A stretch of DNA of 64,000 bases. Source: an uncultured Candidatus Saccharibacteria bacterium. GTDB taxonomy: Bacteria; Patescibacteriota; Andersenbacteria; UBA10190. Below are positions 5,699 to 57,077 of the stretch, in pieces (the stretch's first letter is position 1; the number at the start of each line of letters is the position of its first letter). The translations under genes and the position numbers were made by a program. The DNA is taken from assembly GCA_964610055.1 (NCBI GenBank), contig CAZSUC010000001.1:216867-280866 (forward strand), read 5' to 3'. Under the pieces are notes generated by a model. It searched no databases and had not been told where the DNA came from. It saw only the letters and a program-made list of their open reading frames with translations.

Positions 5699-6193
5699 AT
5701 GTCCAAGCGCACTGAATTGGTTATCGCGATTTATCTCGCCTGTTTCTTGCTCGTGCTGAACTGGATCGGTTTATTCAATCTTATTGGCCAGCGTCTTATG
5801 CAGACCTATGGCCAACAATCCCCGCCTATTCCAGCAAAGGAGTGCCAGTCGACGCCTCCAGCTCATCACGTCGTCGATTCGTACGTTCAGCCCGCTTTGT
5901 TCACGGAACCTGTCAAAACCACTAGATTGATCACCTCGCGCAGTGATGACATTCTTATTTCCAAGGCCTGGCAGAAATTTCTTGAAAATCATATGAGCTT
6001 CATTGTGAGCTGTACTTCTCAGTACCAACCTTTGCGGGCAGGGGAGAAGCTAGTGGTTTTCCCTGTCTCCGGGTTGCCTCATGTCAGTATCGAAGCGCAT
6101 ATTGATTTCGAAAAAGGCGAAATCTGGGCCTGCATTAACGGCGGAGTCCTTCCTGATGACTGGGCTGACCTTGCTGACGGGCCTGACCCATGA
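5699..6193 (+). CDS. hypothetical membrane-anchored protein
   Basis: 164 aa ORF with an N-terminal TM helix, bracketed by the two repeated terminators. Confidence 0.45.
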   Translation: MSKRTELVIAIYLACFLLVLNWIGLFNLIGQRLMQTYGQQSPPIPAKECQSTPPAHHVVDSYVQPALFTEPVKTTRLITSRSDDILISKAWQKFLENHMSFIVSCTSQYQPLRAGEKLVVFPVSGLPHVSIEAHIDFEKGEIWACINGGVLPDDWADLADGPDP

Positions 6194-6205
6194 AAGACCT
6201 CATCC

Positions 6206-6245
6206 TTTTCGCGCCCGACGCTTTGCGTCCGGGCGCTCTTTTTAT
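6206..6245 (+). terminator. rho-independent terminator (copy 2 of repeated element)
   Basis: CGCGCCCGACGCTTTGCGTCCGGGCGC + TCTTTTTATTT. Differs from copy 1 by one base in the stem/loop. Confidence 0.6.
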
Positions 6246-6299
6246 TTCATTTCTCTGCGTTATTATTAAACATATTCCTTATTCTTAATTTTCTTTTCT

Positions 6300-8975
6300 A
6301 TGTTGTGTGAACGTTGCTCTTCTCGCCCCGCTGCCTTGCAAGTAACTCGCACAGTCAACGGGCGGACCGAACATCATAATCTATGTCACGCTTGCGCAGA
6401 AGAATTGGGGCTTACTACCCCGCAAGCATCATCTCAAAATTCGCCTTTTGGCCTTTTCCCTGGGTTTGGCGGCTTTTTAGACGAGCCATTTTTTGGTCTT
6501 GGCCAACACTCGCATACTGGCATTCCTAATACTCGTCCTCAGGCTGAGCAAATTAATATCCTGGATTCATTTTCTGACCGAGCTAAAGCTGTTATTCAGT
6601 TCGGAGCCAAAGCCGCCGTTCAAGCCAAAGCACCTTTTTTAGATACTGAACATCTTTTAATTGGCGTGGCTCAAGAGCCGGAAGTTGGACAAGTCGTTTT
6701 AAAAAATCTTGATATCAATCCCGATGAGTTGGTGGGATATTTGTCCGAAAACATGCTTAAAAATCAAAAGAATTACAGTGAAGGAGTTGCCCCCGATCTT
6801 TCTCCGCGCGCCAAAAAAGCCCTTGAGCTAGCTTGGCATACCGCTCGCAATCTTGAACATGGCTATGTTGGGAGTGAACACATTTTGTTAGGACTATTAG
6901 CTGAAGGAGAAGGATTAGCTGCTCAGACTTTACAAAAATACGGCATTTCCGAAACCAAATTACGCCAAGCCGTTTTATCGGCTGTCGGTGAAAAAGGCAA
7001 AAAGACTGGCACAGCAGCTGCTAAAAGTAAAACGCCAACTCTTGATCAATATAGTCGCGATTTATCTCAATTAGCTCAAGAAAATAAATTAGATCCAGTA
7101 ATTGGTCGGGCTGATGAGGTTCAAAGAATTGTTCAAATTCTCTCACGACGAACAAAAAATAATCCTGTCTTAATTGGAGAGCCGGGGACAGGTAAAACTG
7201 CTATTGCTGAAGGTTTAGCAATCCGCATTCTTTCCGGGCAAGTCCCGGAAACATTAAAGGATAAGCGTATTGTTGCCCTTGATATTGCTGGTATGGTTGC
7301 CGGTACTAAATTTCGCGGCGAATTTGAAGAGCGTCTTACTAAAGTCATTCAGGAACTGCAGGCCACTAAAGGAACAATAATTTTGTTCATTGATGAATTA
7401 CATACAGTGATGGGTGCTGGCAACTCCGGCGAAGGCGGTACGTTAGACGCGGCTAATATTTTAAAGCCCGCTCTCGCTCGCGGTGATCTTCAAGCCATTG
7501 GCGCCACCACTTTAAATGAATATCGCAAGCATATTGAAAAAGATCCGGCCTTAGAGCGTCGTTTTCAACCCGTTATGGTCGATGAACCTTCCGTTTCTGA
7601 CGCCATTGAAATTTTGCGTGGGCTTAAAGATCGTTACGAAACTCATCACAAAGTCACTATTAACGACGATGCTATCGTAGCCGCTGTTACTTTATCTGAT
7701 AAGTATATTCGCGATCGCTTTTTGCCTGACAAAGCCATTGACTTAATGGATGAAGCCGCTGCCAAAGTGCGTCTTAGCTCTTTGGAACCACCTTCTTCTC
7801 TTGTGCGCCTTCAGGACCAACTTAAGGCCTTGCAACGTGATTTAGCTGCGGCTCAACGAGCCAAACAGTCAGAAAAAATCACTCCATTAAAAGATCAAAT
7901 TTCAACTACTGAAAAAGATATTGCTGAGCAACAATCAGTCTGGAAAAAGCAATCAGGCACCACTCAGGCTGAAGTTCGTTCTCAGGATATCGAGTCTATT
8001 ATTGCTGCTTGGACCGGTATTCCTGTTGAAAAATTAACTGAAGCTGAATTAGATCGGCTCCTTCATTTAGAAGATGAGTTGCATAAGCGGGTTATCGCCC
8101 AAGAAGAGGCCGTTAAATCAGTTAGTGAAGCCATTCGTCGTAATCGAGCCGGATTAAAAGACCCGAATCGGCCTCAAGGATCATTTCTTTTTCTGGGTCC
8201 GACTGGAGTTGGCAAAACAGAGCTAACCAAAGCTTTAGCCAATGTTCTTTTCGGCACCGATGACGCTCTAATTCGTTTAGATATGTCTGAATACATGGAA
8301 AAACACTCAGTCTCTCGCATGGTTGGTGCGCCTCCGGGTTATGTTGGCTACGATGAAGGCGGACAGCTCACTGAAGCTGTGCGTCGTAAGCCATATGCCG
8401 TTATTTTGTTGGATGAAATTGAAAAAGCCCATCCTGATGTATTCAATATTCTACTACAAGTCCTCGAAGATGGTCGTTTAACCGATAGTAAGGGGAGAGT
8501 CATCGATTTTAAAAACACCCTGATTATTATGACTAGTAATGTCGGCAGTGCCATGATTCAGGAAGCGGCTAAACGAGCTAACAAATCTGACTGGGACAAT
8601 CTCAAACGTCTTTTAAACGATCAGCTCAAAACCACTTTTCGCCCTGAATTTCTGAATAGAATCGACGATATCATTGTTTTTCACGCTTTAACTAAGGAGC
8701 ATGTCCAAAAAATTACCGATTTATTATTAGCTGATGTTAAACGGCTTGTTCGTGCTCAAGGGCTTAACCTGGAAATCAATGAAGAAGTACGTAATCGTCT
8801 TGCTCAAGATGGGTTTGATCCTGAATTTGGCGCTCGTCCGCTTAGACGCGAAATCAGACAGCGTTTAGAAAATAAACTTTCCACTGTTCTGCTCACCGGA
8901 CAATTCCCTCAAGGATCAACTATCGAAGCTTCTCTGAAGCAAGATGACATTATTTTCACTGCTAAGAAAGCCTAA
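6300..8975 (+). CDS. clpC: ATP-dependent Clp protease ATP-binding subunit (ClpC-type double AAA+ chaperone) with N-terminal Cys4 zinc-ribbon extension
   Basis: Two Clp_N repeats. Walker A GEPGTGKT in D1 and GPTGVGKT in D2. A short ~80 aa middle domain (ClpC-like rather than the long ClpB coiled coil). Sensor motifs. The N-terminal CxxC...CxxC (MLCERCSS...CHAC) ~80 aa extension is unusual. Confidence 0.9.
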
Positions 8976-44776: not shown

Positions 44777-45175
44777 ATGTTAACTAATGTTTCCGCTTTT
44801 ATTTTCAAAGACAATCAAGTCTTAATCGCTCAAAGAGCTGATAATGAAGACTTGCTATTAGGCTATTGGGAATTAGTTGGCGGAGGTGTCGAAACAAATG
44901 AAACTCCAAAGCAAGCGTGCCTTAGAGAGACAAAAGAAGAAGCAGGTATAGATATTGCAATTGGTCGACAATATGGTAATTTCCCTTTTACTCATCCAGA
45001 ACTTGGTCAAATTGATAGCCTTGCTTTTGTTTGTGTTCCCAAATCAAATTCCGCAATCACATTGAGTTTCGAACATCAAAACTATCGTTGGATTACAGCC
45101 GCAGAACTAGGGGATATTAACCCAATGACTGATCGCATGCGTTCTATGATTCTTCAGGGTTTTAATGAAGTTTAG
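44777..45175 (+). CDS. NUDIX hydrolase
   Basis: Nudix box GGGVETNETPKQACLRETKEEAGI. Confidence 0.8.
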   Translation: MLTNVSAFIFKDNQVLIAQRADNEDLLLGYWELVGGGVETNETPKQACLRETKEEAGIDIAIGRQYGNFPFTHPELGQIDSLAFVCVPKSNSAITLSFEHQNYRWITAAELGDINPMTDRMRSMILQGFNEV

Positions 45176-45473
45176 CTTGTAAAACTTCCACATTCCGAAT
45201 AAACTCTTTTTCTAAATCAATTCCATACTCATCTGCTAGCACTAACACGCTCCATAAACAATCTGCTAATTCATGTGCTAAAGCCTCATCCACATTATCA
45301 ATTTTCCTAATACCTTGCTTAGCCAGTATTAATTTCATTAAATCACCTACATCTCCTACGAATCCTTCGGCAATATTTTCCCTAGTCCAATTTTTATTGT
45401 ATGTAATTTTCTCATACTTTCTATATATCTCTCTTAGTTCCAACGCTTTTTCCTTTAATTCGTTAAATTGCAT
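45162..45473 (-). CDS. MazG-like nucleotide pyrophosphohydrolase
   Basis: EEVGDLMKL-like and ELADCLWSVLVLADEYGIDL blocks of the all-alpha MazG/NTP-PPase fold. Confidence 0.7.
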   Translation of the reverse strand: MQFNELKEKALELREIYRKYEKITYNKNWTRENIAEGFVGDVGDLMKLILAKQGIRKIDNVDEALAHELADCLWSVLVLADEYGIDLEKEFIRNVEVLQAKLH

Positions 45474-45504
45474 TATTTTATCTTAAGTAGAGTAAAGTAA
45501 TATT

Positions 45505-46008
45505 ATGCTTAACGTTAAACCTTTCCAGGAGACTTTGCACGGTGGCTATTGTGGTCCAGCAAGCCTAAAAATGGTCTTAAACTATTACGGCCGAGATAAA
45601 AGCGAAGAAGAGATAGCTGTGCAATGCAAACGCGACCCCGATCTTGGCACTACCGATATTGCTCTTAAACAAGTCGCCGAAAACTATGGATTTGAAGTAA
45701 TTATCCAAGATAAAGCCTCGTTTGATGACCTAAAGCACTGGTTAGACCGAAAAGTACCTGTAATCGTTAATTGGTTTACTCGCGGTCGTTCGAACTATTC
45801 AGACTCTGAAGTTCCTGACGGTCATTATTCTGTCGTCATCGGTTTAGACGCTAACAACATCTATCTCCAAGACCCGGAAATAGGGAATATACGCACTATC
45901 AGCCGGGATAATTTCCTAAAAGTATGGTTTGATTTCAAATCCAGCCACATCCAATCATGGGAAGATTTAATCCTCCGGCAAATCATCGCCATTTATCCTA
46001 AAGAGTAA
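45505..46008 (+). CDS. stand-alone peptidase C39-like domain protein
   Basis: HGGYCGPASLKMVLNYYG (catalytic Cys context) plus downstream His (DGHYSVVIG) and Asp (QDPE), typical of the C39/C39-like papain fold. Confidence 0.6.
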   Translation: MLNVKPFQETLHGGYCGPASLKMVLNYYGRDKSEEEIAVQCKRDPDLGTTDIALKQVAENYGFEVIIQDKASFDDLKHWLDRKVPVIVNWFTRGRSNYSDSEVPDGHYSVVIGLDANNIYLQDPEIGNIRTISRDNFLKVWFDFKSSHIQSWEDLILRQIIAIYPKE

Positions 46009-46024
46009 TAAAATTGTTCATCAT

Positions 46025-46420
46025 ATGAAAAAAGAAAGCGTTGGTATTCTGATTACAAATAAAGCCGGAGAATACCTTTTACAAATGCGAGATGGAACCC
46101 CTGGTATTTGCAACCCTTTACGCTGGAACTTTTTTGGCGGTCGACGCAATAATCTCGAAGAAATTATTTCCGGAGCTATGCGTGAGTTATCTGAAGAATT
46201 AGATATTATTGCGAATTCAGAAGAATTCAAAATTCTTGGGGACATTATTTTTCCTGACGGTGAGTTTTACACTCTTACTCAATATTTGAAACCAATAACT
46301 TGGCGCGATTTCAGTGTTAATGAAGGCGCTGGAGCAGCTTTTTTTACGAAGCAAGAGCTAGAACAAATTAACATTACCGAAAAAACCAAACTACTAATCC
46401 ATAAATTTATTATTGGATAA
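46025..46420 (+). CDS. NUDIX hydrolase
   Basis: Nudix box FGGRRNNLEEIISGAMRELSEELDI. Confidence 0.7.
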   Translation: MKKESVGILITNKAGEYLLQMRDGTPGICNPLRWNFFGGRRNNLEEIISGAMRELSEELDIIANSEEFKILGDIIFPDGEFYTLTQYLKPITWRDFSVNEGAGAAFFTKQELEQINITEKTKLLIHKFIIG

Positions 46421-46423
46421 ATA

Positions 46424-46876
46424 ATGTTAACATGCGTTTTTGAAAACGGAGACGAAGCATCACTGCGACATGCAGTCGTGCAAGGAATTGTGCTAAATCA
46501 GGATAACCAACTCATGCTTATTAAGCGGGCAGTCAACTTGATTGAAGGAAGTAAATGGGCCTTACCGGGTGGTTATGTTGAGCGCGATGAAACGCTTCCC
46601 GAAGCTCTTACACGGGAAGTTAAAGAAGAAACTGGTTGGGAAATTAAAAATATAAAACTCATTAGTATTTACGATAATCCTAATCGCCCTCGTGAAGATC
46701 GACAAAACATCGCCTTTAACTACATCTGTCTGGCTACTAAGCAAACCGGTCAACATGACCATGAAGTTACCGCAACGCACTGGTTTTCTTTAACGGATCC
46801 AGTCGTTAAGAACCTCGCTTTTGATCATTCTAATGCAGTCAATGATTTTATTAGCCAAAAAAATATTCGTGACTAA
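46424..46876 (+). CDS. NUDIX hydrolase
   Basis: Nudix box LPGGYVERDETLPEALTREVKEETGW. Confidence 0.8.
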   Translation: MLTCVFENGDEASLRHAVVQGIVLNQDNQLMLIKRAVNLIEGSKWALPGGYVERDETLPEALTREVKEETGWEIKNIKLISIYDNPNRPREDRQNIAFNYICLATKQTGQHDHEVTATHWFSLTDPVVKNLAFDHSNAVNDFISQKNIRD

Positions 46877-46981
46877 AATATGGCAATTGCACCGTTTGGC
46901 CTAATTCAGCAAGCATACCAATTAAAATTTTTAATAAGCACTCCAATAACATTGATCATTTAGTAAACGATATTATTAACT

Positions 46982-47563
46982 ATGCCAAAATCTAAAGAAA
47001 TCAAACCTTGGAAACTAATTAACTCCGAAATGGTTTTAGATGAAAAATGGTACCGTGTTCGTAAAGATACTGTCGAAGTCCGCCCAGATCGAATTATTGA
47101 CGATTACTACATCGGTCTTTTCAATGACATTGTTTTAATCCTTGCTCTTACTCCGGACAATAACGTTCCTCTGGTGCGTCAATATAAACATAGAGCCGGG
47201 GAAATCCTCTTAGAACTCCCGGCTGGTTACATGGATCCAGGCGAAGAACCGCTGCATGCCGCTCAAAGAGAATTGCAAGAAGAAACTGGGTTTACTGCTA
47301 AAGATTGGCAATATTTTGGTTGTTTCATCTCAAACTCCGCTAAATCAAAAGGGAATAATGTTCATATTTTTCTTGCGCGCAACGCTGTTCAAACTCACTC
47401 GCAAAACCTAGATCCTAACGAAGACATCGAAATTGTTACTATTCCTTTTCAAGATGCCATTAAAAAAGCTCTTAATCATGAAATCAAAGGCAGTGATAGT
47501 GTTTTGGCTCTCCTTCTAACTGAAAAACAGAAAAAATCAATTTACCGCCACGCGCAAAAATGA
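46982..47563 (+). CDS. NUDIX hydrolase (ADP-ribose pyrophosphatase-like)
   Basis: Nudix box LPAGYMDPGEEPLHAAQRELQEETGF with an N-terminal NudF-like extension. Confidence 0.8.
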   Translation: MPKSKEIKPWKLINSEMVLDEKWYRVRKDTVEVRPDRIIDDYYIGLFNDIVLILALTPDNNVPLVRQYKHRAGEILLELPAGYMDPGEEPLHAAQRELQEETGFTAKDWQYFGCFISNSAKSKGNNVHIFLARNAVQTHSQNLDPNEDIEIVTIPFQDAIKKALNHEIKGSDSVLALLLTEKQKKSIYRHAQK

Positions 47564-47907: not shown

Positions 47908-49149
47908 ATGAACGACAATTTATCACAAAAATTAACTGCAACCTCAAACAAGACCGGCGAGCCAAAACCGGTTTTTTTTGACCTCAGTTCTAATGCAGAC
48001 CAATCCAAACTCGAGGATCTGTTAGAAAAAAATCCTCATACAAAAATTGTTGATACGTATGATACGCAGTTGCTCGAATCTTTTGTTCTAGATCATCCAG
48101 CTTTACACATTAATCATCCTGAACGTGATCGTCAGTTTAAAGATTACCGCGATCAGCATTATGGTACCCAAGAAGCTTGGCAAGCCGGTAAATGGGTTTA
48201 TCTTCCTTGGAGACACATCTTGCTCCATATTCTAGACGATGCTTCGTATCAAAAAGTTCGCACCGGGCGTAACCGTAACCTTATTACTGCAGCTGAACAG
48301 GACAAGTTTTATAACAGTACTATCGGTATCGGTGGTCTGTCGGTTGGTAACAGTATCGTACTGGCTATTGTTTTAAGCGGTGGGGGAAAGCATATGAAAT
48401 TGGCTGATCCAGATACTTTGGAACTAACAAATCTTAATCGCATTCGCGGTAGCATATCCGAACTCACTGAGCCAAAAGTATATATGACTGCTCGACAAAT
48501 TTACGAGCTTGATCCTTATGCGGATCTGACTCTCTACACCGACGGGATTACTGAAGACAATATTACTGATTTCTTTACCGGTTTAGATTTGGTTATTGAT
48601 GAAATAGATAATCTAGGAATCAAAATTCGTATCCGTCAGCATGCTCAAAAAAATCGTATCCCAGTAGTGATGGCAGCTGACAATGGAGAAGGAGGCATTT
48701 TAGACGTTGAACGACATGACAAAGAAGACAATATCCCATATTTTCATGGTCGAGCTGGCCAAGACATTGAAGATCGCGTTTTAAATCAACATTTACCTCT
48801 ACCTTTAATTGGTAAGGTAATTTGTGAAGAACTTATTGGCTACGATATGACCGATGAACGAATGCAACAGTCTGTCTTGCAGATTGGCCAAGAAATTCCT
48901 ACTTGGCCTCAATTAGGAGCCGCCGCTCTCTTAAATGGAGTTGCTGTTGCTGGTACCGTTAGGCGTATTTTAAATAATCAGCCCGCCGTTAATGATAGAG
49001 CTGATTTGCGTATGAGTGCTTGGCTTGATCCTTATTACAATGATCCTGAGCAAGCCGAACAACGCCGCCGCAATACCGAAAAATTCGGTAAGGCTTACGA
49101 TCAGAATATCGAACAGTTTCTAAAAATGATGCAAAAGAAACTTAACTAG
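47908..49149 (+). CDS. ThiF/MoeB/E1-like adenylyltransferase family protein with long N-terminal extension
   Basis: Rossmann GxGxxG (IGIGGLSVGNSIVLAI), followed by a DPD...L.NLNR arginine-finger region and a DxxD-like block (LVIDEIDN). Confidence 0.6.
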   Translation: MNDNLSQKLTATSNKTGEPKPVFFDLSSNADQSKLEDLLEKNPHTKIVDTYDTQLLESFVLDHPALHINHPERDRQFKDYRDQHYGTQEAWQAGKWVYLPWRHILLHILDDASYQKVRTGRNRNLITAAEQDKFYNSTIGIGGLSVGNSIVLAIVLSGGGKHMKLADPDTLELTNLNRIRGSISELTEPKVYMTARQIYELDPYADLTLYTDGITEDNITDFFTGLDLVIDEIDNLGIKIRIRQHAQKNRIPVVMAADNGEGGILDVERHDKEDNIPYFHGRAGQDIEDRVLNQHLPLPLIGKVICEELIGYDMTDERMQQSVLQIGQEIPTWPQLGAAALLNGVAVAGTVRRILNNQPAVNDRADLRMSAWLDPYYNDPEQAEQRRRNTEKFGKAYDQNIEQFLKMMQKKLN

Positions 49150-50299
49150 CACCTAAAATTACCTCAACTTTCTCTACATCATCCGGACTTAACGCAAAAT
49201 GAGCTCGTAAATAACCCGTATCAGCACTCCCAGGCCTAAAGAAAGGAATACCAGGCGCCACCGCGATGCCTTTATCTAATAGCTCCTGCATCGCTGCCAT
49301 ATCACTGGCGCGATTATGTTTTACCATCATGTAATAAGCCCCCTGCGGCGACACTGGTTCCATGCCATATTTCTCAAAAGCAGCCATAATTCTTATTCGA
49401 TTATTTCGATATTGTCCCACTAAATCTGACACAAACCGATCTAATTGGTTGCTTTCTGTTTGCCATAAGTCTGCTAAAATCAATTGCGCTGGCGCTGGTG
49501 CACCTACGTATAAAGCCTCATGAATATGCGTCATATTAGCCCGTCGTTCAGGAGCAGTTATCGCATATCCTGTTCTCCAGCCAGCTAAGGCTAAATTCTT
49601 GGAAAAACTCCTACAGATTACTAAGTGGTTTAAATCGGAAGCTAAACTTAAAAGGGAAGTATAATCATTTTCCCAAATAAAATCTTGATAAACCTCATCC
49701 ATTACTAGCAGCACATTATTACGAACACATAAATTGTACAATTTTTCTAAATCATCCTTATCAATCACTGTGCCTGTCGGATTAGCTGGATTTCCAATTA
49801 ATAATGCCTTGAGCCCCGGGATTTTTTGGCCAATAGTTTCCCAGTTCAATTTAAATTCAGTATTGTAGGGAATGTATTCCGTAACCGCTTGAATAGCTTG
49901 AATGGCCCAATTATGAGCTGGATAAAAAGGCTCCAACAAGCCTACTTTATCGCCGGGAGCGCATACTGTTCTTAAAGCAGAAACTACTCCACCTGTTACT
50001 CCATTAGTTGCCATTACTTCCTCTAAAGTTAAGTCAGCTCTTTCTCTTTGCAAGCGATTTAATAGTGCTGCTCTATATTCCTTATATCCTGCTGGAGAAG
50101 CATAAGTATGCATTCGGCGCTCTTTAAACCTCTCATTTAATTTATCCAAGAAAATCTTAGGTGGGGCAGTATGAACTACTCCTTGCGCCATATCAATTGC
50201 TCCAGCTTCAACTGCCATGTCGGCCATTTCTCGGCCTGTTGGTAAATGCGTCCCGTTATTTTTAATCATCAAAACCTTGGCATCGATAACATTTTTCAT
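49142..50299 (-). CDS. PLP-dependent aminotransferase (class I/II, AAT fold)
   Basis: SFSKNLALAGWRTGY (PLP-lysine block), NPANPTG, and a C-terminal R for substrate carboxylate. Confidence 0.85.
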   Translation of the reverse strand: MKNVIDAKVLMIKNNGTHLPTGREMADMAVEAGAIDMAQGVVHTAPPKIFLDKLNERFKERRMHTYASPAGYKEYRAALLNRLQRERADLTLEEVMATNGVTGGVVSALRTVCAPGDKVGLLEPFYPAHNWAIQAIQAVTEYIPYNTEFKLNWETIGQKIPGLKALLIGNPANPTGTVIDKDDLEKLYNLCVRNNVLLVMDEVYQDFIWENDYTSLLSLASDLNHLVICRSFSKNLALAGWRTGYAITAPERRANMTHIHEALYVGAPAPAQLILADLWQTESNQLDRFVSDLVGQYRNNRIRIMAAFEKYGMEPVSPQGAYYMMVKHNRASDMAAMQELLDKGIAVAPGIPFFRPGSADTGYLRAHFALSPDDVEKVEVILGAS

Positions 50300-50322
50300 A
50301 AGCTAAGGATAGCTCCATTTTC

Positions 50323-50356
50323 GCCCAATAAAAAGCGGCAGGTGATACCCGCCGCA
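50323..50356 (-). terminator. rho-independent terminator closing the RiPP operon
   Basis: Minus-strand GCGGCGGGTATCACCTGCCGC hairpin followed by TTTTTATTGGG. Lies between the small membrane-protein gene and the aminotransferase start. Confidence 0.5.
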
Positions 50357-50381
50357 TAAACCACCTGGATTTCATGCTGCT

Positions 50382-50657
50382 TTAGCCGAAAAGCCAGGGG
50401 ACCAGAGACCAGAAAGCCCAATGTGCCATGTAACCGATGCCACACATCAGCAGGGTTACAACCGTGACGATCATCCAAAGAGGAGTCTGGAATGGCGCTG
50501 CAAAATCAACGGATTCACTGGGCGCACTTGTCTCTAAGTTCGCATGCGGCAACAGGCCATCCCGAGCGCGGGACTCCCACGCAATCTTGCTAGGAGTCTC
50601 ACTGTCATTCCTGTGATTTTGATCCGCACCAACATCGTAAGAACTCCCGTGCATCAC
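50382..50657 (-). CDS. small membrane protein (2 C-terminal TM helices); candidate immunity/export accessory
   Basis: 91 aa with a hydrophilic N-terminus and a C-terminal WMIVTVVTLLMCGIGYMAHWAFWSLVPWLF. It is the last gene of the operon and has higher GC than the host background. Confidence 0.4.
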   Translation of the reverse strand: MMHGSSYDVGADQNHRNDSETPSKIAWESRARDGLLPHANLETSAPSESVDFAAPFQTPLWMIVTVVTLLMCGIGYMAHWAFWSLVPWLFG

Positions 50658-50796
50658 ATAACCCTCCTAAAAAGGACAAAATCACACAACCTACTACTAA
50701 TCAAAAATTACAGTCAATAACACAAAATTACAACCATGCCGTGTCAATTGTTCTTAACACGCAGATTCAAACTTAATTAACAATAGGTTGGTAATT

Positions 50797-51471
50797 CTAA
50801 AAAATTTCCTCTGCTTTGACCTCCACAATTGCCGCCGGATTCTTAATATTCCGTTTCGCCATATACTGCCGCACCATATCATACCCCAGCGAATACCCAG
50901 TCCACTTTTTTATACCGTTCCCCCCGTAAAACCAATCATCGCGGTTAAAATCTTCAGACTTCAAGATCGGTTTTGCTTTTTTCCAAATCAGACTCAACTC
51001 CTGACTATCAAGATTATGAGCATACGGCACATCAATATCAGAATACATAAATTCCTCAAACATTGACGGCAATCCCTCGTCAACTAACGCCTCACCCAAT
51101 GTTTTTGCTACTGGCCAAGTGGCATATCGTCTAGCATGGCACATCTCATGGGCAATTGCTGATGGCATCCATTGTTTTACATTATGAATTATCCCATTTT
51201 TATGTTTTGGGTCTATAAAAATTAGAATTGTATCTGCTTCGCCGCACCGGCCTCCTACACCCTGCTCCGGAATAGTCGCAAATTTATCCGCATAAACCAA
51301 AATATTACACTCCTTAAGATTAAGCCATTTATTACAGTCAGTCACAGCCTCTCGCGCCACTTCTAAAACATTAGCCGCATCTAGCACTTCCGCATCTTGA
51401 TCATGTATCCGGTACATTAAATGGATATAAATTTTACTGCTAGTTATCTTGTATGAGAATTTTGTGAGCAT
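50797..51471 (-). CDS. putative Zn-dependent metallopeptidase (HExxH; DUF2268-like?)
   Basis: SAIAHEMCHARRY contains HEMCH with a downstream Glu (VDEGLPSMFEEF). Immediately downstream of the precursor gene in the same orientation. Confidence 0.5.
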   Translation of the reverse strand: MLTKFSYKITSSKIYIHLMYRIHDQDAEVLDAANVLEVAREAVTDCNKWLNLKECNILVYADKFATIPEQGVGGRCGEADTILIFIDPKHKNGIIHNVKQWMPSAIAHEMCHARRYATWPVAKTLGEALVDEGLPSMFEEFMYSDIDVPYAHNLDSQELSLIWKKAKPILKSEDFNRDDWFYGGNGIKKWTGYSLGYDMVRQYMAKRNIKNPAAIVEVKAEEIF

Positions 51472-51490
51472 ACCACCGTATGATCATAGG

Positions 51491-51526
51491 ATTAATAAAA
51501 GGGCCGACTGTATAGGAGCCGGCCCA
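51491..51526 (-). terminator. intra-operon partial terminator/attenuator immediately after precursor gene
   Basis: Minus-strand GGGCCGGCTCCTATACAGTCGGCCC hairpin followed by TTTTATTAAT. Sits 17 nt after the precursor stop codon. Confidence 0.45.
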
Positions 51527-51542
51527 ACGCGGAGAGGATTGG

Positions 51543-51725
51543 CTAGCGGCTGCACTTACCGCCGCCGTTTGATCCGCCACCGCTGCACTTACCGCCGCCG
51601 TTTGATCCGCCGGCACATCCGTTTCCGCTTGCTTGCATCTCGCGGGTAGAAATACCGCGAGAATAAGCGAGCCGCGTCACCTTCAGTTGAGGAGACGCTT
51701 TTTTCGCAACCGTCTCTGACGGCAC
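51543..51725 (-). CDS. RiPP precursor peptide, microcin B17-like Gly/Ser/Cys/Asn-rich core (LAP/TOMM substrate)
   Basis: 60 aa: MPSETVAKKASPQLKVTRLAYSRGISTREMQAS | GNGCAGGSNGGGKCSGGGSNGGGKCSR. GTG start with AAGGAGGT 5 nt upstream. Lies 15 nt downstream of the YcaO gene. The core has 3 Cys, 4 Ser, 3 Asn and 14 Gly in 27 residues. Confidence 0.7.
   Translation of the reverse strand: MPSETVAKKASPQLKVTRLAYSRGISTREMQASGNGCAGGSNGGGKCSGGGSNGGGKCSR
51549..51611. repeat. perfect 33-nt direct tandem repeat (x2) inside precursor core
   Basis: GCTGCACTTACCGCCGCCGTTTGATCCGCC occurs at 51549 and again at 51582 (period 33). It encodes the duplicated core module GGSNGGGKCS. Confidence 0.85.
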
Positions 51726-51740
51726 AACGAACCTCCTTTC

Positions 51741-53603
51741 CTAATCCAAAGGGTGGACAGAAAATCTTAGAGGCACATCCTTAACTTCAACGACACGAGT
51801 ATGCGGGAGCTGGTTGAACCCAAACGTCAAAGGAACAAACCAGGGACTCAGGAGCCGCACCACCCTCAATCCCTGTACCTCACCATACGCAACCGAGTAC
51901 AGCGCGTCAACACCTAATTGTCGACACACTTTGACAACGTCGGCGCTTTCAACAACCTCTTCGGAAAAGCAAGGCTTCGTTAACTCTGACTCTGAAAAAG
52001 TTGTTGAAGACCACAAAAAAGAAGCTGAAACCAAGTTTTCAGGATTGTTAAACCAGCACGCATGGTCATCTGGCGTCCTAACGTCCTGTAAGGCAATTCG
52101 CGGCTTTTCTTCCATGTGCATTGCCGGATCCAGTAACCGGCAAAACAATCCTACCTCAGCTTCTTTCCAAGCACTCAGCAGTGCTTCTTGGACAGTGTTG
52201 CGCGCAGCTGCGCCGCAAATCATCGCCGGCCAATTGTTTCTCCGCAAGACTACTAGCATCGTGGGTACGATAGTCTTGGATATATCAAGGAAATCCACCT
52301 GATATCCAAGTGACCGCACCTTATCGCATTCCGCGACGAGGTCTCGGGGAATCATGCACTCAGACAATCGTGACGGAGGCTGGCGAAAAATCCAGGTTTT
52401 CATGAACGCATCGCGTTCAATGAGCTCTAATAGCGCCGAAAACTGCGCTTTCGCAACAGACATTCCAGCAGCCATACCAGAAGAGTTCGCCCAACGGCAT
52501 CTTTGCTTGTAAGAATGCGGTTGGAAAGGGTAGTAACACAAATCAGCAAGAATCCGCACTTCCTGACCAGTTATAACACTAATGGCATTGCGCCAATAGT
52601 ATTTGCAATCTGGTTTAAAAGGGCGCAGCTCCGCATCCTCGCATTGGCTACCAGTCAAGTGATACAGGGAATCGGGGTCAATCCGATTTTTGCTTCCATG
52701 CAATGACCCATATTCAAGTCCATGAGTATTGTATTTTCCAGCCGCATGCCTCTCCAAAGCTTCTGCGGACGAAACCAAATGCGCTGTGAGCCTATCCCTG
52801 TGCGCGCCACTTGCGACTGGATTACGTCTCCCGTCCCATTGTCCTTTTTGGCGATAGCGAGACATAACTATCGCCACAGACGGAGAAAATCCCGTGGACA
52901 AATCTGTGATTACAGATTGCTGAACCACAGAGCCAAATGGACCACAATAATGCCAATTCCCAACATCAATCCAATTAACTGTGCGCTCGCGGACACTAAT
53001 CTCGCATAGGCATTCATCCTCCGCTAACAAAGAGACAATCGTACTAGCAAGCCACTTACACGTGTCATGCTCAATAAAATTTTCTCCAGGAATAACTACC
53101 TCGCCCGTGTTCCAGAAAAGAGGGCGTGCCCTATCTAGCCAAACGCCAGCAAACGCCCACTCAATCAGCCGCTTAGCCAGAAGCTTTTGCTGTCGTGGTT
53201 TAGATAGCTTGGCCAACAGGTAAAGAGGGCCAAACCGGAAGCCTAAACCATAGCATTTCCCAGTTTTATTAAAAACTGGGAAATGCTGAAAAATTGGCAA
53301 ACCCGAGCAATTCTCTGCGATGTGCCAGTCAAGTCGATCAGGAGGTTGGGTATCCAAAACCCAGACTTGCTCTTGAATCAACAATGACCATAGCGACATC
53401 ATTTTTTCTGGGGGAACATTGCTTTGTTCAGCAAAATTCCAGACAATTACTTGATCAAGCAGGCCATTCTTATAACCTGCACACGCACGTAACAAGTGCG
53501 AGACCTGAGCATCAGCAATGGAAACCTCGTTCTGTAGACTTACGAACTCGGCCCGGTCACTCAGAAAAAACAGATCATATGTAGGGTTAAACCTAACAAT
53601 CAT
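51741..53603 (-). CDS. YcaO-domain cyclodehydratase (TOMM SagD/McbD-type) with ~230 aa N-terminal extension
   Basis: YcaO signature RWANSSGMAAGMSVAKAQFSALLELIERDAF (ATP/Mg-binding S...E..ER motif) and downstream conserved blocks. The N-terminal ~230 aa has no Rossmann motif and is a possible leader-binding/E1-like docking domain. Confidence 0.85.
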   Translation of the reverse strand: MIVRFNPTYDLFFLSDRAEFVSLQNEVSIADAQVSHLLRACAGYKNGLLDQVIVWNFAEQSNVPPEKMMSLWSLLIQEQVWVLDTQPPDRLDWHIAENCSGLPIFQHFPVFNKTGKCYGLGFRFGPLYLLAKLSKPRQQKLLAKRLIEWAFAGVWLDRARPLFWNTGEVVIPGENFIEHDTCKWLASTIVSLLAEDECLCEISVRERTVNWIDVGNWHYCGPFGSVVQQSVITDLSTGFSPSVAIVMSRYRQKGQWDGRRNPVASGAHRDRLTAHLVSSAEALERHAAGKYNTHGLEYGSLHGSKNRIDPDSLYHLTGSQCEDAELRPFKPDCKYYWRNAISVITGQEVRILADLCYYPFQPHSYKQRCRWANSSGMAAGMSVAKAQFSALLELIERDAFMKTWIFRQPPSRLSECMIPRDLVAECDKVRSLGYQVDFLDISKTIVPTMLVVLRRNNWPAMICGAAARNTVQEALLSAWKEAEVGLFCRLLDPAMHMEEKPRIALQDVRTPDDHACWFNNPENLVSASFLWSSTTFSESELTKPCFSEEVVESADVVKVCRQLGVDALYSVAYGEVQGLRVVRLLSPWFVPLTFGFNQLPHTRVVEVKDVPLRFSVHPLD

Positions 53604-54630
53604 CCATAGTCTCCTCCAGGCGACCAGCTAAAACGACAGTAAGAGGCACAACGCCATCTAACAGGTTAAGAACAGCGGACAACTCACGATCAAAAAACCC
53701 ACCAACTTCTACACAACCCAAGCCACACTCAGCACAAAAAATTTGCAAATTTTGTGCTGCATGACCGGCTTCAAGAATAGTGTAGCGATAACCGCGATCA
53801 CCATACTTCCTACACACGAATGGCACATCACCACTGATCACAAAACATGCCCCGCAAGTATCTACATAAGTGTCTTTCATAAAGCAACCATGAAAGGCAG
53901 TAGTATCTTGCCATTTAGTCAGCAGATGAATGTCATGGGTGTAAGAATACACTCCGCTGTCAAGTCCAGGCGACGGTGTTGTAACAAGAACATGCAGCAT
54001 AAGCGGATAGAGAGCGCCAGCTGACGGTATCGTACGGCGTAATAAACCGCAAGACTCCCAAGCAAACGATCCTACCACCCCGCATGCAGACCAACACAAA
54101 TCCCTAACCTCCTGGCGCTTGAGAGGCGCCCCAGTAAACTGACGAGACGTGCGTCGACTACATAATAACTTCGCAAAGGGGGTCGTCGGCACCGGCAGAA
54201 AGCCTCCTACAGGCTGCCTTTTCTGCACTTCGTTGTACAAATTGTTCATCTCATCGTCAGACAGCCTCTTAAAAAGAGGCATGGGATTGTTGCCGTATGC
54301 ATGAAATGCACGCCAGCATTCCTGGGCATCTACTAACGCTCCGCTACTTTGTAACAACTCAACCAGTGACAAAATTGACGGAAGTGGGTATGAGCAAGAA
54401 AGAACCTCAATAATCTCATGTAACTCGTAGTAGCCGGAACAATAACGCAACAAATCCCGCTGAAGCTGAACGTCACATTCAACTACTATGACTTCCTCGG
54501 GAAGGTAATACCGCATAGAGGAAATACAGTTATCAACGTAACAAGTAACCCTAGGGCGCCAAGAAAGGCTCATCAGAAGTTTCTCCTTATAATTGTCAAA
54601 GAACTGTCCAAAACGACGACAATCAATCAT
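53593..54630 (-). CDS. SagB-type FMN-dependent dehydrogenase (McbC-like azoline oxidase, nitroreductase fold)
   Basis: N-terminal SagB-specific extension followed by a nitroreductase core (LLCSRRTSRQF; AGALYP; RYTILEAGHAAQNLQIFCAECGLG). Overlaps the YcaO gene by 11 bp. Confidence 0.8.
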   Translation of the reverse strand: MIDCRRFGQFFDNYKEKLLMSLSWRPRVTCYVDNCISSMRYYLPEEVIVVECDVQLQRDLLRYCSGYYELHEIIEVLSCSYPLPSILSLVELLQSSGALVDAQECWRAFHAYGNNPMPLFKRLSDDEMNNLYNEVQKRQPVGGFLPVPTTPFAKLLCSRRTSRQFTGAPLKRQEVRDLCWSACGVVGSFAWESCGLLRRTIPSAGALYPLMLHVLVTTPSPGLDSGVYSYTHDIHLLTKWQDTTAFHGCFMKDTYVDTCGACFVISGDVPFVCRKYGDRGYRYTILEAGHAAQNLQIFCAECGLGCVEVGGFFDRELSAVLNLLDGVVPLTVVLAGRLEETMDDC

Positions 54631-54825
54631 TCACTATTATTGCTCTATAAGCAAATTAAACCTGTCAATCAAAACTGACAAACAAAAAACCAATTTTTTG
54701 CCACAAGGCTATTTACATGTTCAAAACCCAGTATAAACTAATCCCCCAAAACCAGCTAAAATAGGCATGGTTTCCAGCATCGGGTTTATCGTGCGTATCC
54801 TAGCTGTTTTTATTAACCCTCGTGT

Positions 54826-55447
54826 ATGACCTATCAACATTTCACCGTCGAGGAACGAGAAACAATTCAACTCGGACTTTGGCAGAGGGAGTCGATCAGT
54901 TCCATCGCAAAACGTCTGGGACGCTCAGCCTCGTCCGTCAGTCAAGAGATTAAGAGGAATCTGTACCTCAAGCGTCGCTGGTCACCAGAACAGATTGCGG
55001 GTCGCATCAAGCGTGACCTCGGCGAGACTATTTCTCACGAAGCAATTTACTAATTCATCTACTCCTAGGTGTATCGAGAAGGCCATGGGTATGTGAAGCC
55101 AGCTCATTAAGACTTGCGGCCATACCTACGCCGACGCCGTAAGCGACGCCTTGCTCGCGGTAGCCGTTGTTGCCAGCGAGTGCCGCGACCAAAAACACCC
55201 TCACGGAACGGCGGACCGGTAAGCTCTTCATTATGAAATTGCCTGACCGAACAGCGGCGAGTACCGCCACCGCGGTGACGAGCCATCTGGAGCATCTGCC
55301 ACAGAGACTACGACGGACCCTCACCAGATGAGCTGGCGCATGTCGAAGCCGAGCTCAATGACCGGCCGCGCAAACGGCTCGGTTATTTAACCCCTAACGA
55401 AGCTATAGGGTGTTGCACTTCGAGGTTGAATCTACCGGAGACACGTT
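54826..55447 (+). pseudogene. IS30-family transposase remnant (N-terminal HTH plus C-terminal tail, DDE core deleted or scrambled)
   Basis: The 75-aa ORF MTYQHFTVEERETIQLGLWQRESISSIAKRLGRSASSVSQEIKRN...WSPEQIAGRIK...ISHEAIY matches the IS30 Tnp N-terminus. At 55330..55447 another frame reads DELAHVEAELNDRPRKRLGYLTPNEAI, the typical IS30 C-terminus. The middle ~270 bp is GC-rich with no intact frame. Confidence 0.55.
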
Positions 55448-55475
55448 TGTCTAAAAACATGTATTATGACACCAT

Positions 55476-57077
55476 ATGAATATGAAAAATATTCCGTTTC
55501 CAGTACCAACCATTCCTGTAGAAAGTAAAAATCAGGATTCAAAATATTCGTATAAATATGCTCACAAAATTTATAAAGAATATTTTAATTTTCCGATCAA
55601 AAAAGCAAGGCAGACCCTAGAAGATACTTCGCCCGCAGATTGGAATAAGAAGGGCAAGGTGCAAGCATTAAACGTATTTCAAGCCGCTGCCCATCGCGTC
55701 CCAGCATATAAAGACTTCTTAAAGAAACATAAAGTTAATCCAAGCACCATCACCTCTGTATCTGATTTCGAAAAAATTCCAGTCATTGATAAAGAATCCT
55801 ACCTAAAACATTATCCCGTAGAACAGCTATGCTGGGACGGGATTTTTACTAATGGTAATATAATTTCAGTATCCTCTGGGTCTTCTGGAAAACCATTTTT
55901 ATGGCCTCGAGAAATCGGTCTTGAATTAGAAGTAACTTATTTTTTTGAACTTATTTTAGATTCGTTCTTTCATATTTCTAGTCACAAAACTCTATTAGTG
56001 GATTGTTTTGCTATGGGGATGTATGTAGGGGGACCGTTTGTATTAAATACAACCATGCGTATATCGCAAAAAGGCTACCCCATATCAATTGTTACTCCAG
56101 GGAATGTTATGGAGGATATTCTGCGCGTGGTTAAGGAACTCGGACCTCAGTATGAACAAGTTATATTATCCGGATACCCGCCTTTTATTAAGGACATTAT
56201 TGATAAAGGCAGAAAGATTGGAATCGATTTTAATTCTTTTAAAACAATTATATTTCCAGCAGGCGAAGGTTTCTCTGAATCATGGCGCAGTGCAGTTGCA
56301 GAAAATGCCAATATTCAAGATCCTGTTAATAGCCTCTTAGGATATTATGGTACTGCTGATGCTGCGGTTATGGGAGCAGAAACTCCTTGGTCTGTATTGA
56401 TACGTAAAGCTGTATCGCGAAATATAGAAAATATTGAAAAAATATTTGGAGAATGTCGCATGCCATCAGTTCTGCAATATATTCCGACGCTACGTTATTT
56501 TGAATTAATAAACGAGGAACTAGCCTTTACAGCCGCTAACGGATGTATACCTTTAGTGCGTTACAATATAAGAGATAAAGGAGGGCTATGGAAATTTACC
56601 GATGCACATAAAAATCTCAAACAAATAGGAGTGTCATATCAGGACGAGTTAGATCAAAATTCCAAATATGGTAAACCATGGCAATTGCCATTCGTTTATG
56701 TATTTGGGCGCAGTGATCAAACTGCTATTATCTACGGCGCTAATGTTTATCCTGAACACATCAAAATGATTCTTGAAAGTAAGGAATTGGCTGGCTACTG
56801 TTCTGGGCGTTTTGTTCTTGATACAGAAGAAGATCATTCGCATAATCAACATCTTATCTTGCATTTAGAATGTCATGCTCACGTTCAACGCAATAATGAT
56901 TTGCGAGACTACTTAACAAAAACTGTTTTTAAAATGCTCAAAAATATTAACGCAGAATACGCAAATTCCGCTAAAGCTAACGGGTCAAAAGCCATTCCTA
57001 AGATTTTCTTACAAGAATACGAAGATTCTCATTATTTTGCTCGAGACAAAAAGCAGCAGTGGAAGCTTAAAAAGTAA
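55476..57077 (+). CDS. PaaK/CapK-like adenylate-forming enzyme (phenylacetate-CoA ligase / F390 synthetase family)
   Basis: P-loop-like VSSGSSGKPFLWP in the ANL superfamily position, 533 aa, and a YGTADAA-like block. Very low GC, unlike the adjacent island. Confidence 0.55.
   Translation: MNMKNIPFPVPTIPVESKNQDSKYSYKYAHKIYKEYFNFPIKKARQTLEDTSPADWNKKGKVQALNVFQAAAHRVPAYKDFLKKHKVNPSTITSVSDFEKIPVIDKESYLKHYPVEQLCWDGIFTNGNIISVSSGSSGKPFLWPREIGLELEVTYFFELILDSFFHISSHKTLLVDCFAMGMYVGGPFVLNTTMRISQKGYPISIVTPGNVMEDILRVVKELGPQYEQVILSGYPPFIKDIIDKGRKIGIDFNSFKTIIFPAGEGFSESWRSAVAENANIQDPVNSLLGYYGTADAAVMGAETPWSVLIRKAVSRNIENIEKIFGECRMPSVLQYIPTLRYFELINEELAFTAANGCIPLVRYNIRDKGGLWKFTDAHKNLKQIGVSYQDELDQNSKYGKPWQLPFVYVFGRSDQTAIIYGANVYPEHIKMILESKELAGYCSGRFVLDTEEDHSHNQHLILHLECHAHVQRNNDLRDYLTKTVFKMLKNINAEYANSAKANGSKAIPKIFLQEYEDSHYFARDKKQQWKLKK

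Follow-up and report, generated by a model that had tools for sequence, protein, structure and literature searches.

The window analysed here, a 64,000-nucleotide stretch of contig CAZSUC010000001.1, carries a compact run of four genes that has the makings of a small peptide-modifying pathway: a dehydrogenase of the SagB type, dependent on flavin mononucleotide (FMN) and headed by a recognition element (RRE) of the kind found in systems for peptides made on the ribosome and modified after translation (RiPPs), followed by a YcaO cyclodehydratase, a precursor peptide and a predicted protease of the family DUF2268. These genes, and the features within them on which the argument leans, are as follows.

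54583..54588, minus strand: Shine-Dalgarno-like AAGGAG, read from the sequence, 9 nt 5' of the ATG at 54573
53593..54573, minus strand: RRE-SagB dehydrogenase gene, 326 amino acids, preferred start 54573 (longest open reading frame up to 54630)
54319..54573, minus strand: RRE (winged helix), the N-terminal domain of the dehydrogenase, residues ~1-85
53608..54183, minus strand: FMN-dependent oxidase domain (nitroreductase fold), residues ~131-322
53803..53808, minus strand: codons of K256-Y257, the predicted catalytic Lys-Tyr pair, by alignment to McbC K201-Y202
51741..53603, minus strand: YcaO cyclodehydratase, 620 amino acids, a family-specific N-terminal region of ~260 amino acids plus the YcaO domain (PF02624, 126 bits)
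51543..51725, minus strand: precursor peptide gene, 60 amino acids, GTG start with AGGAGG 6 nt upstream, encoding MPSETVAKKASPQLKVTRLAYSRGISTREMQASGNGCAGGSNGGGKCSGGGSNGGGKCSR
51549..51611, minus strand: perfect 33-nt tandem duplication in the core-coding region, duplicating the unit GGGSNGGGKCS (Tandem Repeats Finder: period 33, 1.9 copies, 100% match)
50797..51471, minus strand: DUF2268 predicted zinc metalloprotease with an HExxH motif (HEMCH), PF10026 at 92 bits

The sequence-only reading of this DNA had placed the dehydrogenase at 53593-54630, overlapping the start of a YcaO gene by 11 bp. A minus-strand open reading frame (ORF) of 345 codons does span 53593..54630, and the ORF directly downstream on the same strand (620 codons) is indeed a YcaO by its PF02624 match. 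The overlap can be read directly: nucleotides 53593..53603(-), ATGATTGTTAG, hold the end of the dehydrogenase in one frame (...ACT ATG GAT GAT TGT TAG) and the beginning of YcaO in another (ATG ATT GTT AGG). Only the start of the dehydrogenase has to be corrected. The 23 relatives that could be aligned (23/23) all begin at the second methionine of the long ORF (W-x-P-R-V), the public protein P0001, 100% identical to the dehydrogenase, is 326 amino acids long, and the Shine-Dalgarno-like AAGGAG precedes this second ATG; no comparable site occurs in the sequence upstream of the ATG at 54630. Because relatives, protein length and ribosome-binding site agree, the gene most likely starts at 54573 (MSLSWRPRV) rather than at 54630, and residue numbers given here are those of the 326-residue protein. 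The ATG of YcaO matches the starts of its orthologues at the same residue (MIVRFNPTYD versus MQYVWNPEYD), and GGAGGAG lies 7 nt 5' of it, inside the dehydrogenase gene. The overlapping stop and start, together with this internal Shine-Dalgarno site, would favour co-translation of the two enzymes, and translational coupling from dehydrogenase to YcaO is plausible in the window. Despite a varying overlap, which is 4 bp in the related loci L005 and L007 and gives way to gaps of 12-29 nt in L002, L003, L004, L009 and L010, tight co-directional adjacency of the two genes is kept in every locus.

Pfam recognises only a Nitroreductase domain in the dehydrogenase, at 55 bits and over residues 158-325 in the numbering of the long ORF. 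A profile built from 24 relatives matches Escherichia coli McbC, the sequence of which was taken from a microcin B17 plasmid, with 98.3% probability (hhalign, E 1.8e-14). K256-Y257 is invariant in the 24 sequences and sits in RKYGDRGYRY, aligned with FKYRYRGYRM of McbC; the catalytic role of K201-Y202 in that enzyme, and the roles of its FMN-ligand arginines, have been described (PMC6395948). R179/R180 are conserved and aligned with the McbC FMN-phosphate ligands R117/R118, and an RRTSR motif (RRxxR; R140, R141 and R144) is conserved beside McbC R82, the invariant R140 falling within one residue of it, an approximate equivalence. The PSAGALYP loop is conserved throughout the family, and R140, P183, S184, G186, E268-H271, Q274 and N275 are likewise invariant among relatives that share only 25-56% identity.

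Comparison of structures leads to the same family. The top matches of the dehydrogenase are the SagB-type oxidases 3eo7, McbC, BmdC and ThcOx, and generic nitroreductases score below them, with 8cqs and 3hj9 as exceptions; in the alignments the Lys-Tyr pair is found also in BmdC, and neither in the nitroreductase-like 8cqs nor in either half of 3eo7. The N-terminal domain has the fold of an RRE, three beta strands and three helices that superimpose on known RREs (PqqD-like winged helix). Neither enzyme's N-terminal domain, scanned on its own, nor the precursor gave a Pfam or NCBIfam match at E values up to 10. An ordinary NAD(P)H nitroreductase with no tie to peptide maturation is an exceedingly improbable alternative in view of the RRE domain, the Lys-Tyr pair, the conserved synteny with YcaO and precursor, and the fusion proteins described below. 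In structure and predicted function the protein is an azoline dehydrogenase of the SagB/McbC/ThcOx type. The sequence-only reading had called it a SagB/McbC-type FMN dehydrogenase, and fold, Lys-Tyr pair, FMN-binding arginines and genomic context all bear this out: the Lys-Tyr pair specific to thiazole/oxazole-modified microcin (TOMM) systems is present and invariant, the arginines aligned with the McbC ligands are conserved as is the PSAGALYP loop, SagB-type oxidases and not ordinary nitroreductases are the best matches, and the N-terminal domain is an RRE. It is also a reasonable inference, as had been proposed, that the azoles of the product are fully aromatic.

Its partner is, judged by sequence, a divergent member of the azoline-forming YcaO cyclodehydratases. 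The acidic motifs ExxER and ELIERDA, which I take, following Dunbar et al. 2014, to be the ATP/Mg-binding motifs, are conserved, E281/E284/R285 and E393/E396/R397/D398 being invariant in 20 sequences, and the top matches are LynD and McbD. The C-terminus of the family reads VHPLD or VHPFD, as against PHPFP (PxPxP type) in actinobacterial fused YcaOs; in a mixed YcaO alignment H617 is invariant and P618 nearly so, and the terminal Pro is replaced by Asp. The N-terminal 260 amino acids match nothing in Pfam or NCBIfam. LynD can be aligned over 468 residues of the YcaO model, more than the YcaO domain alone, and an in-register but weak hhalign match of the N-terminus to the SagB RRE (E 9e-4, probability 23%) is a hint only; from the model, a LynD-like architecture of RRE plus remnant is possible. 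E1-like homology of this region finds no support at the level of sequence, as the hhalign match to the actinobacterial 'TOMM precursor leader peptide-binding' fused YcaOs covers the YcaO domain only. The few mentions of YcaO in candidate phyla radiation (CPR) genomes in the literature treat these proteins as thioamidation enzymes. That the YcaO of the window makes such another backbone modification (a thioamide or an amidine), with the flavoprotein performing some other oxidation of the peptide, seems to me decidedly unlikely.

Directly downstream of YcaO lies the precursor gene. Its product has a core, SGNGCAGGSNGGGKCSGGGSNGGGKCSR, rich in Cys, Ser and Gly, and a precursor of this kind immediately after YcaO gives the dehydrogenase a substrate. 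In six other loci (L002, L003, L004, L005, L009 and L010) a homologous small ORF is found at this position, and Cys/Ser/Gly-rich precursor ORFs thus directly follow YcaO in 7/7 loci of the subfamily. Their leaders have in common the motif (F/L)-x-V-(T/V)-R-x-x-Y, and their C-terminal cores vary, being rich in Gly, Ser, Cys and Asn; the core of L009, ATVCGNQTCDACRGGCKSTSAQS, is quite unlike the others, and in that locus the gene caller left the precursor ORF uncalled. A conserved leader joined to a hypervariable Cys/Ser-rich core is the signature of a RiPP. No curated precursor model in NCBIfam matches the peptide, and the window holds no second precursor ORF. Between the precursor stop and the DUF2268 start stands a terminator-like hairpin (51501..51525(-), a 9 bp stem with 7 GC pairs, then TTTTATTAAT), which may set the level of precursor and enzyme transcripts relative to that of the protease transcript.

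The order dehydrogenase, YcaO, precursor, DUF2268 was found in all loci of the subfamily examined, including five further complete ones. A DUF2268 gene follows the precursor in L002, L003, L004, L005 and L009, and L010 keeps the same order up to the precursor, after which its contig ends early in the next gene, 134 codons into an unidentified ORF. All four window genes are full length when compared with their homologues (40-57% identity). From this placement the DUF2268 protein is likely the leader peptidase of the system; the literature searched yielded no link between DUF2268 and YcaO systems, and such a role, if true, would be the first function assigned to DUF2268.

A second, more distant subfamily (L007, at 6000..6300 and 7699..7878, and L008) is built on similar lines. 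There an RRE-SagB protein of 322 amino acids overlaps a YcaO of 502 amino acids by 4 bp, two precursor-like ORFs have very Cys-rich cores, CSCSPSCSPGHCS and CAHCGGGCSCSC, behind the common leader LKI(K/T)VTE(K/R)RL(S/A)DEL, and an amidohydrolase is found nearby in place of DUF2268. Elsewhere the two enzymes are joined: single-chain RRE-SagB-YcaO fusions of 725-753 amino acids occur in P0131, P0132, P0134, P0138, P0140 and the partial Patescibacteria protein P0018. They have no extra YcaO N-domain, and one N-terminal RRE stands ahead of both catalytic domains; one fusion gene is followed by an ORF of 52 amino acids with the core TGSSECGACG. These fusions are strong evidence that dehydrogenase and YcaO act together, and they show that both presumed activities can be served by one RRE placed at the N-terminus of the dehydrogenase. 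P0138 (L011 1870..9588, GCA_036674825.1) belongs to a larger cluster with an ATP-binding cassette (ABC) transporter, an acyl carrier protein, a ketosynthase, an ATP-grasp protein (YheCD-like), a GNAT protein and a 52-amino-acid precursor, and L011 may thus make an azole peptide that is lipidated or a hybrid of some other sort.

The dehydrogenase is, I think with good though not full confidence, the FMN-dependent azoline dehydrogenase ('B protein') of a compact linear azole-containing peptide (LAP/TOMM) pathway, encoded by a minus-strand operon that would run from RRE-SagB through YcaO and precursor to DUF2268. The leader would be bound, via (F/L)xV(T/V)RxxY, by the RRE at the N-terminus of the dehydrogenase, perhaps with the help of a second RRE-like element at the N-terminus of YcaO. 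With ATP, YcaO would cyclodehydrate the Gly-rich core at its Cys and Ser residues, giving thiazolines and oxazolines, and the SagB domain would oxidise these to thiazoles and oxazoles; K256 would activate Y257, which would take the alpha proton while the hydride passes to FMN. Removal of the leader would fall to the HExxH protease DUF2268. Co-translation would fit the dehydrogenase and YcaO acting as a complex, and the fused relatives point likewise. I infer these steps (leader binding by the RRE, azoline formation, azole oxidation, leader removal and coupling) from the genes and their known relatives.

Several observations weigh against this assignment. The NCBIfam SagB model TIGR03605 gives the dehydrogenase 75.2 bits (E 4e-21), 3 bits short of its cutoff of 78.4, and the SagD model TIGR03604 gives YcaO 123.3 bits, far below its cutoff of 219.25. 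When 1.84 billion representatives were searched exhaustively with phmmer, the N-terminal 260 amino acids of YcaO retrieved only their own family, and the model of this region, which begins beta-beta-beta-alpha-alpha-alpha, is of low confidence. Some orthologous cores, such as that of L002, contain Ser and lack Cys. No exporter or immunity gene adjoins the cluster in the window, and an IS30 remnant lies just upstream of the dehydrogenase gene, which bears on expression of the predicted operon. Azoline-forming YcaOs normally need an E1/ThiF-type partner, and across the loci examined the module has no conserved partner of E1-like or Ocin-ThiF type. Finally, the equivalent of McbC Arg233 is Val in the dehydrogenase (CVEVGGF); Arg233 has been proposed as a general stabiliser of FMN N1, on the evidence of one structure, and is not a family-defining motif.

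This last substitution and the want of a conserved E1/ThiF partner would also fit a dehydrogenase that is mainly a leader-binding scaffold, replacing the E1/ThiF-type 'C' protein, its flavin chemistry secondary or lost and the product keeping its azolines. In keeping with such a role, the only confidently modelled RRE of the module sits on the dehydrogenase, and the fused relatives place their one N-terminal RRE before both catalytic domains. However, the Lys-Tyr pair, the FMN-phosphate arginines and the PSAG loop are invariant in 24 diverged relatives, which would be unexpected of a dead enzyme, and I consider this explanation unlikely; scaffold and oxidase are in any case not mutually exclusive roles.

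The IS30 remnant raises the further question of whether the cluster is alive. At 54826..55053 (+) an ORF of 75 amino acids has an IS30-type helix-turn-helix domain (HTH_38, 54 bits) and nothing else, apparently the N-terminus of a truncated transposase; its neighbours are the dehydrogenase gene on one side and a divergent PaaK-like gene on the other, and the Logan contig L001 carries this remnant as well. The GC content of 50001..56000 is 45-47%, as against 37-41% on either side (46-50 kb and 56-64 kb), and the raised GC and the insertion sequence remnant are hints of horizontal acquisition; window positions 1-6 kb have a GC content as high as that across the cluster. A scan for the sigma-70 consensus, which is not calibrated for Patescibacteria, found no minus-strand promoter-like site upstream of the dehydrogenase gene. 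The truncated ORF directly upstream, the GC step and the missing promoter would suit an inactive or decaying acquisition whose dehydrogenase gene has no current function. Against this, the four ORFs are intact and of full length beside homologues of 40-57% identity, their ribosome-binding sites are preserved, the core's perfect 33-nt duplication suggests that the gene is live and has evolved recently, and the promoter scan is subject to the calibration just mentioned. Decay is accordingly a very improbable account, and a functional azole-peptide pathway remains the preferred one.

Other genes surround the cluster. Between DUF2268 and the aminotransferase gene next to it, an ORF of 91 amino acids (50382..50657 (-), GTG start) matches no family, and its C-terminal segment is hydrophobic; it is called as a 90-amino-acid gene in L001, has no counterpart at that position in the other loci, and could be spurious or else encode an immunity or membrane protein. 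The class I/II aminotransferase (49142..50299 (-)) has as its best NCBIfam match GntC, a pyridoxal phosphate enzyme of guanitoxin. It is convergent, with an 8-nt overlap, with a gene for a ThiF/E1-like protein (47908..49149 (+)) that matches the Rv1355c family over its N-terminal half (307 bits); the mycobacterial protein has this half fused to a nitroreductase-like half. The ThiF-like gene was considered as the missing 'C' protein and rejected as a core component, being absent from L003, L004, L005, L009 and L010. The pair flanks the module in L002 too, and may represent accessory tailoring or simple synteny.

On the other side, a protein of 520-540 amino acids (55476..57077 (+) in the window, 13082..14710 in L005 and 5074..6639 in L002) has no Pfam match and is weakly similar to the phenylacetate-CoA ligase PaaK or to F390 synthetase (53 bits). 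It adjoins the module in these three loci, in L005 directly downstream of DUF2268 on the same strand, and could serve the pathway as a tailoring enzyme that adenylates. Farther off, at 44777..47563, NUDIX hydrolase genes are unusually concentrated, four of them forming a run (44777-45175, 46025-46420, 46424-46876 and 46982-47563), and among them lie a minus-strand MazG-like gene (45162-45473) and a stand-alone C39 cysteine-peptidase domain of 167 amino acids (45505-46008) without an attached ABC transporter. C39 domains normally cleave the double-glycine leaders of bacteriocins.

The window is chromosomal, as it carries ClpB, polynucleotide phosphorylase, RecG, and the valyl- and methionyl-tRNA synthetases (ValRS and MetRS). 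Proteins that bear the name Candidatus Andersenbacteria or Patescibacteria (Parcubacteria group) share 50-61% identity with its ValRS, and the host is, by this measure, most like Candidatus Andersenbacteria. The module is rare. Among 5.8 billion clustered proteins there are ~9 full-length relatives of the YcaO and ~17 close relatives of the dehydrogenase; a scan of genome contigs for the module returned a single locus, L005, and a scan of metagenome contigs with the YcaO family alignment returned no confirmed relative. L005, a metagenome-assembled genome whose ValRS is 61% identical to that of the window, is the only species-representative genome with the module.

A SagB-type oxidase beside a YcaO is a standard arrangement, and the pathway is of a known type (LAP) in an unusual host, an ultra-small bacterium of Patescibacteria type. 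What is added here is a pathway that is complete, very compact and rare, found in a member of the CPR, with its precursor located and a link to DUF2268. The literature searched yielded nothing on azole-containing peptides in CPR, nor on biosynthetic clusters of Andersenbacteria, and little is known of natural-product chemistry from this radiation. At ~3.8 kb the four genes are small enough for synthesis and expression, they include a precursor of a kind that gene callers can miss, and they could show whether an RRE borne by the oxidase replaces the canonical E1/ThiF partner of azoline-forming YcaOs. A wider proposal, which I offer tentatively and regard as rather doubtful, is that the module is a minimal azole-peptide synthetase, restricted to the CPR/Patescibacteria lineage, that dispenses with an E1/ThiF partner (its RRE residing on the dehydrogenase and perhaps also on YcaO), uses DUF2268 as leader peptidase, and makes a Gly-rich, poly-azole product similar to microcin B17 that an ultra-small episymbiont would deploy against its host or competitors.

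Among known systems, the microcin B17 synthetase McbBCD of E. coli (PDB 6GOS) differs in that McbC has no RRE and a separate zinc-containing protein, McbB, binds the leader. The dehydrogenase shares ~19-22% identity with McbC and has Val for its Arg233, and neither McbB, an McbEF/ABC pump nor an McbG/pentapeptide-repeat gene is found near the window cluster; the only resemblance to microcin B17 is the composition of the precursor core, and on its gene content the cluster is not a member of that family. BmdC, the bacillamide thiazoline oxidase (PDB 7LY4), acts on a substrate tethered to a nonribosomal peptide synthetase, and its RRE is considered a relic, and the cyanobactin oxidase ThcOx (PDB 5LQ4) has two RRE copies. 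In contrast to both, the RRE of the window dehydrogenase is probably functional, being part of a true RiPP operon that also encodes a leader peptide to match. The SagBCD enzymes of streptolysin S type and the LAP clusters of plantazolicin, goadsporin and klebsazolicin follow the same logic of precursor, YcaO, FMN dehydrogenase and leader protease, but the window module has no separate SagC/E1-like protein, its protease is of the DUF2268 family rather than CaaX-type, TldD/E or a peptidase-containing ATP-binding transporter (PCAT), and its host is of a Patescibacteria (CPR) lineage. The fused cyanobactin heterocyclases LynD, PatD and TruD combine an RRE, an E1-like remnant and a YcaO domain, whereas the extension of the window YcaO is only ~260 amino acids long, has no E1-like or RRE profile similarity and is modelled at low confidence, which leaves homology no more than possible. 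As a whole, the module is nearer to the logic of the cyanobactin type, in which an RRE-bearing heterocyclase is paired with an RRE-bearing oxidase, than to McbBCD.

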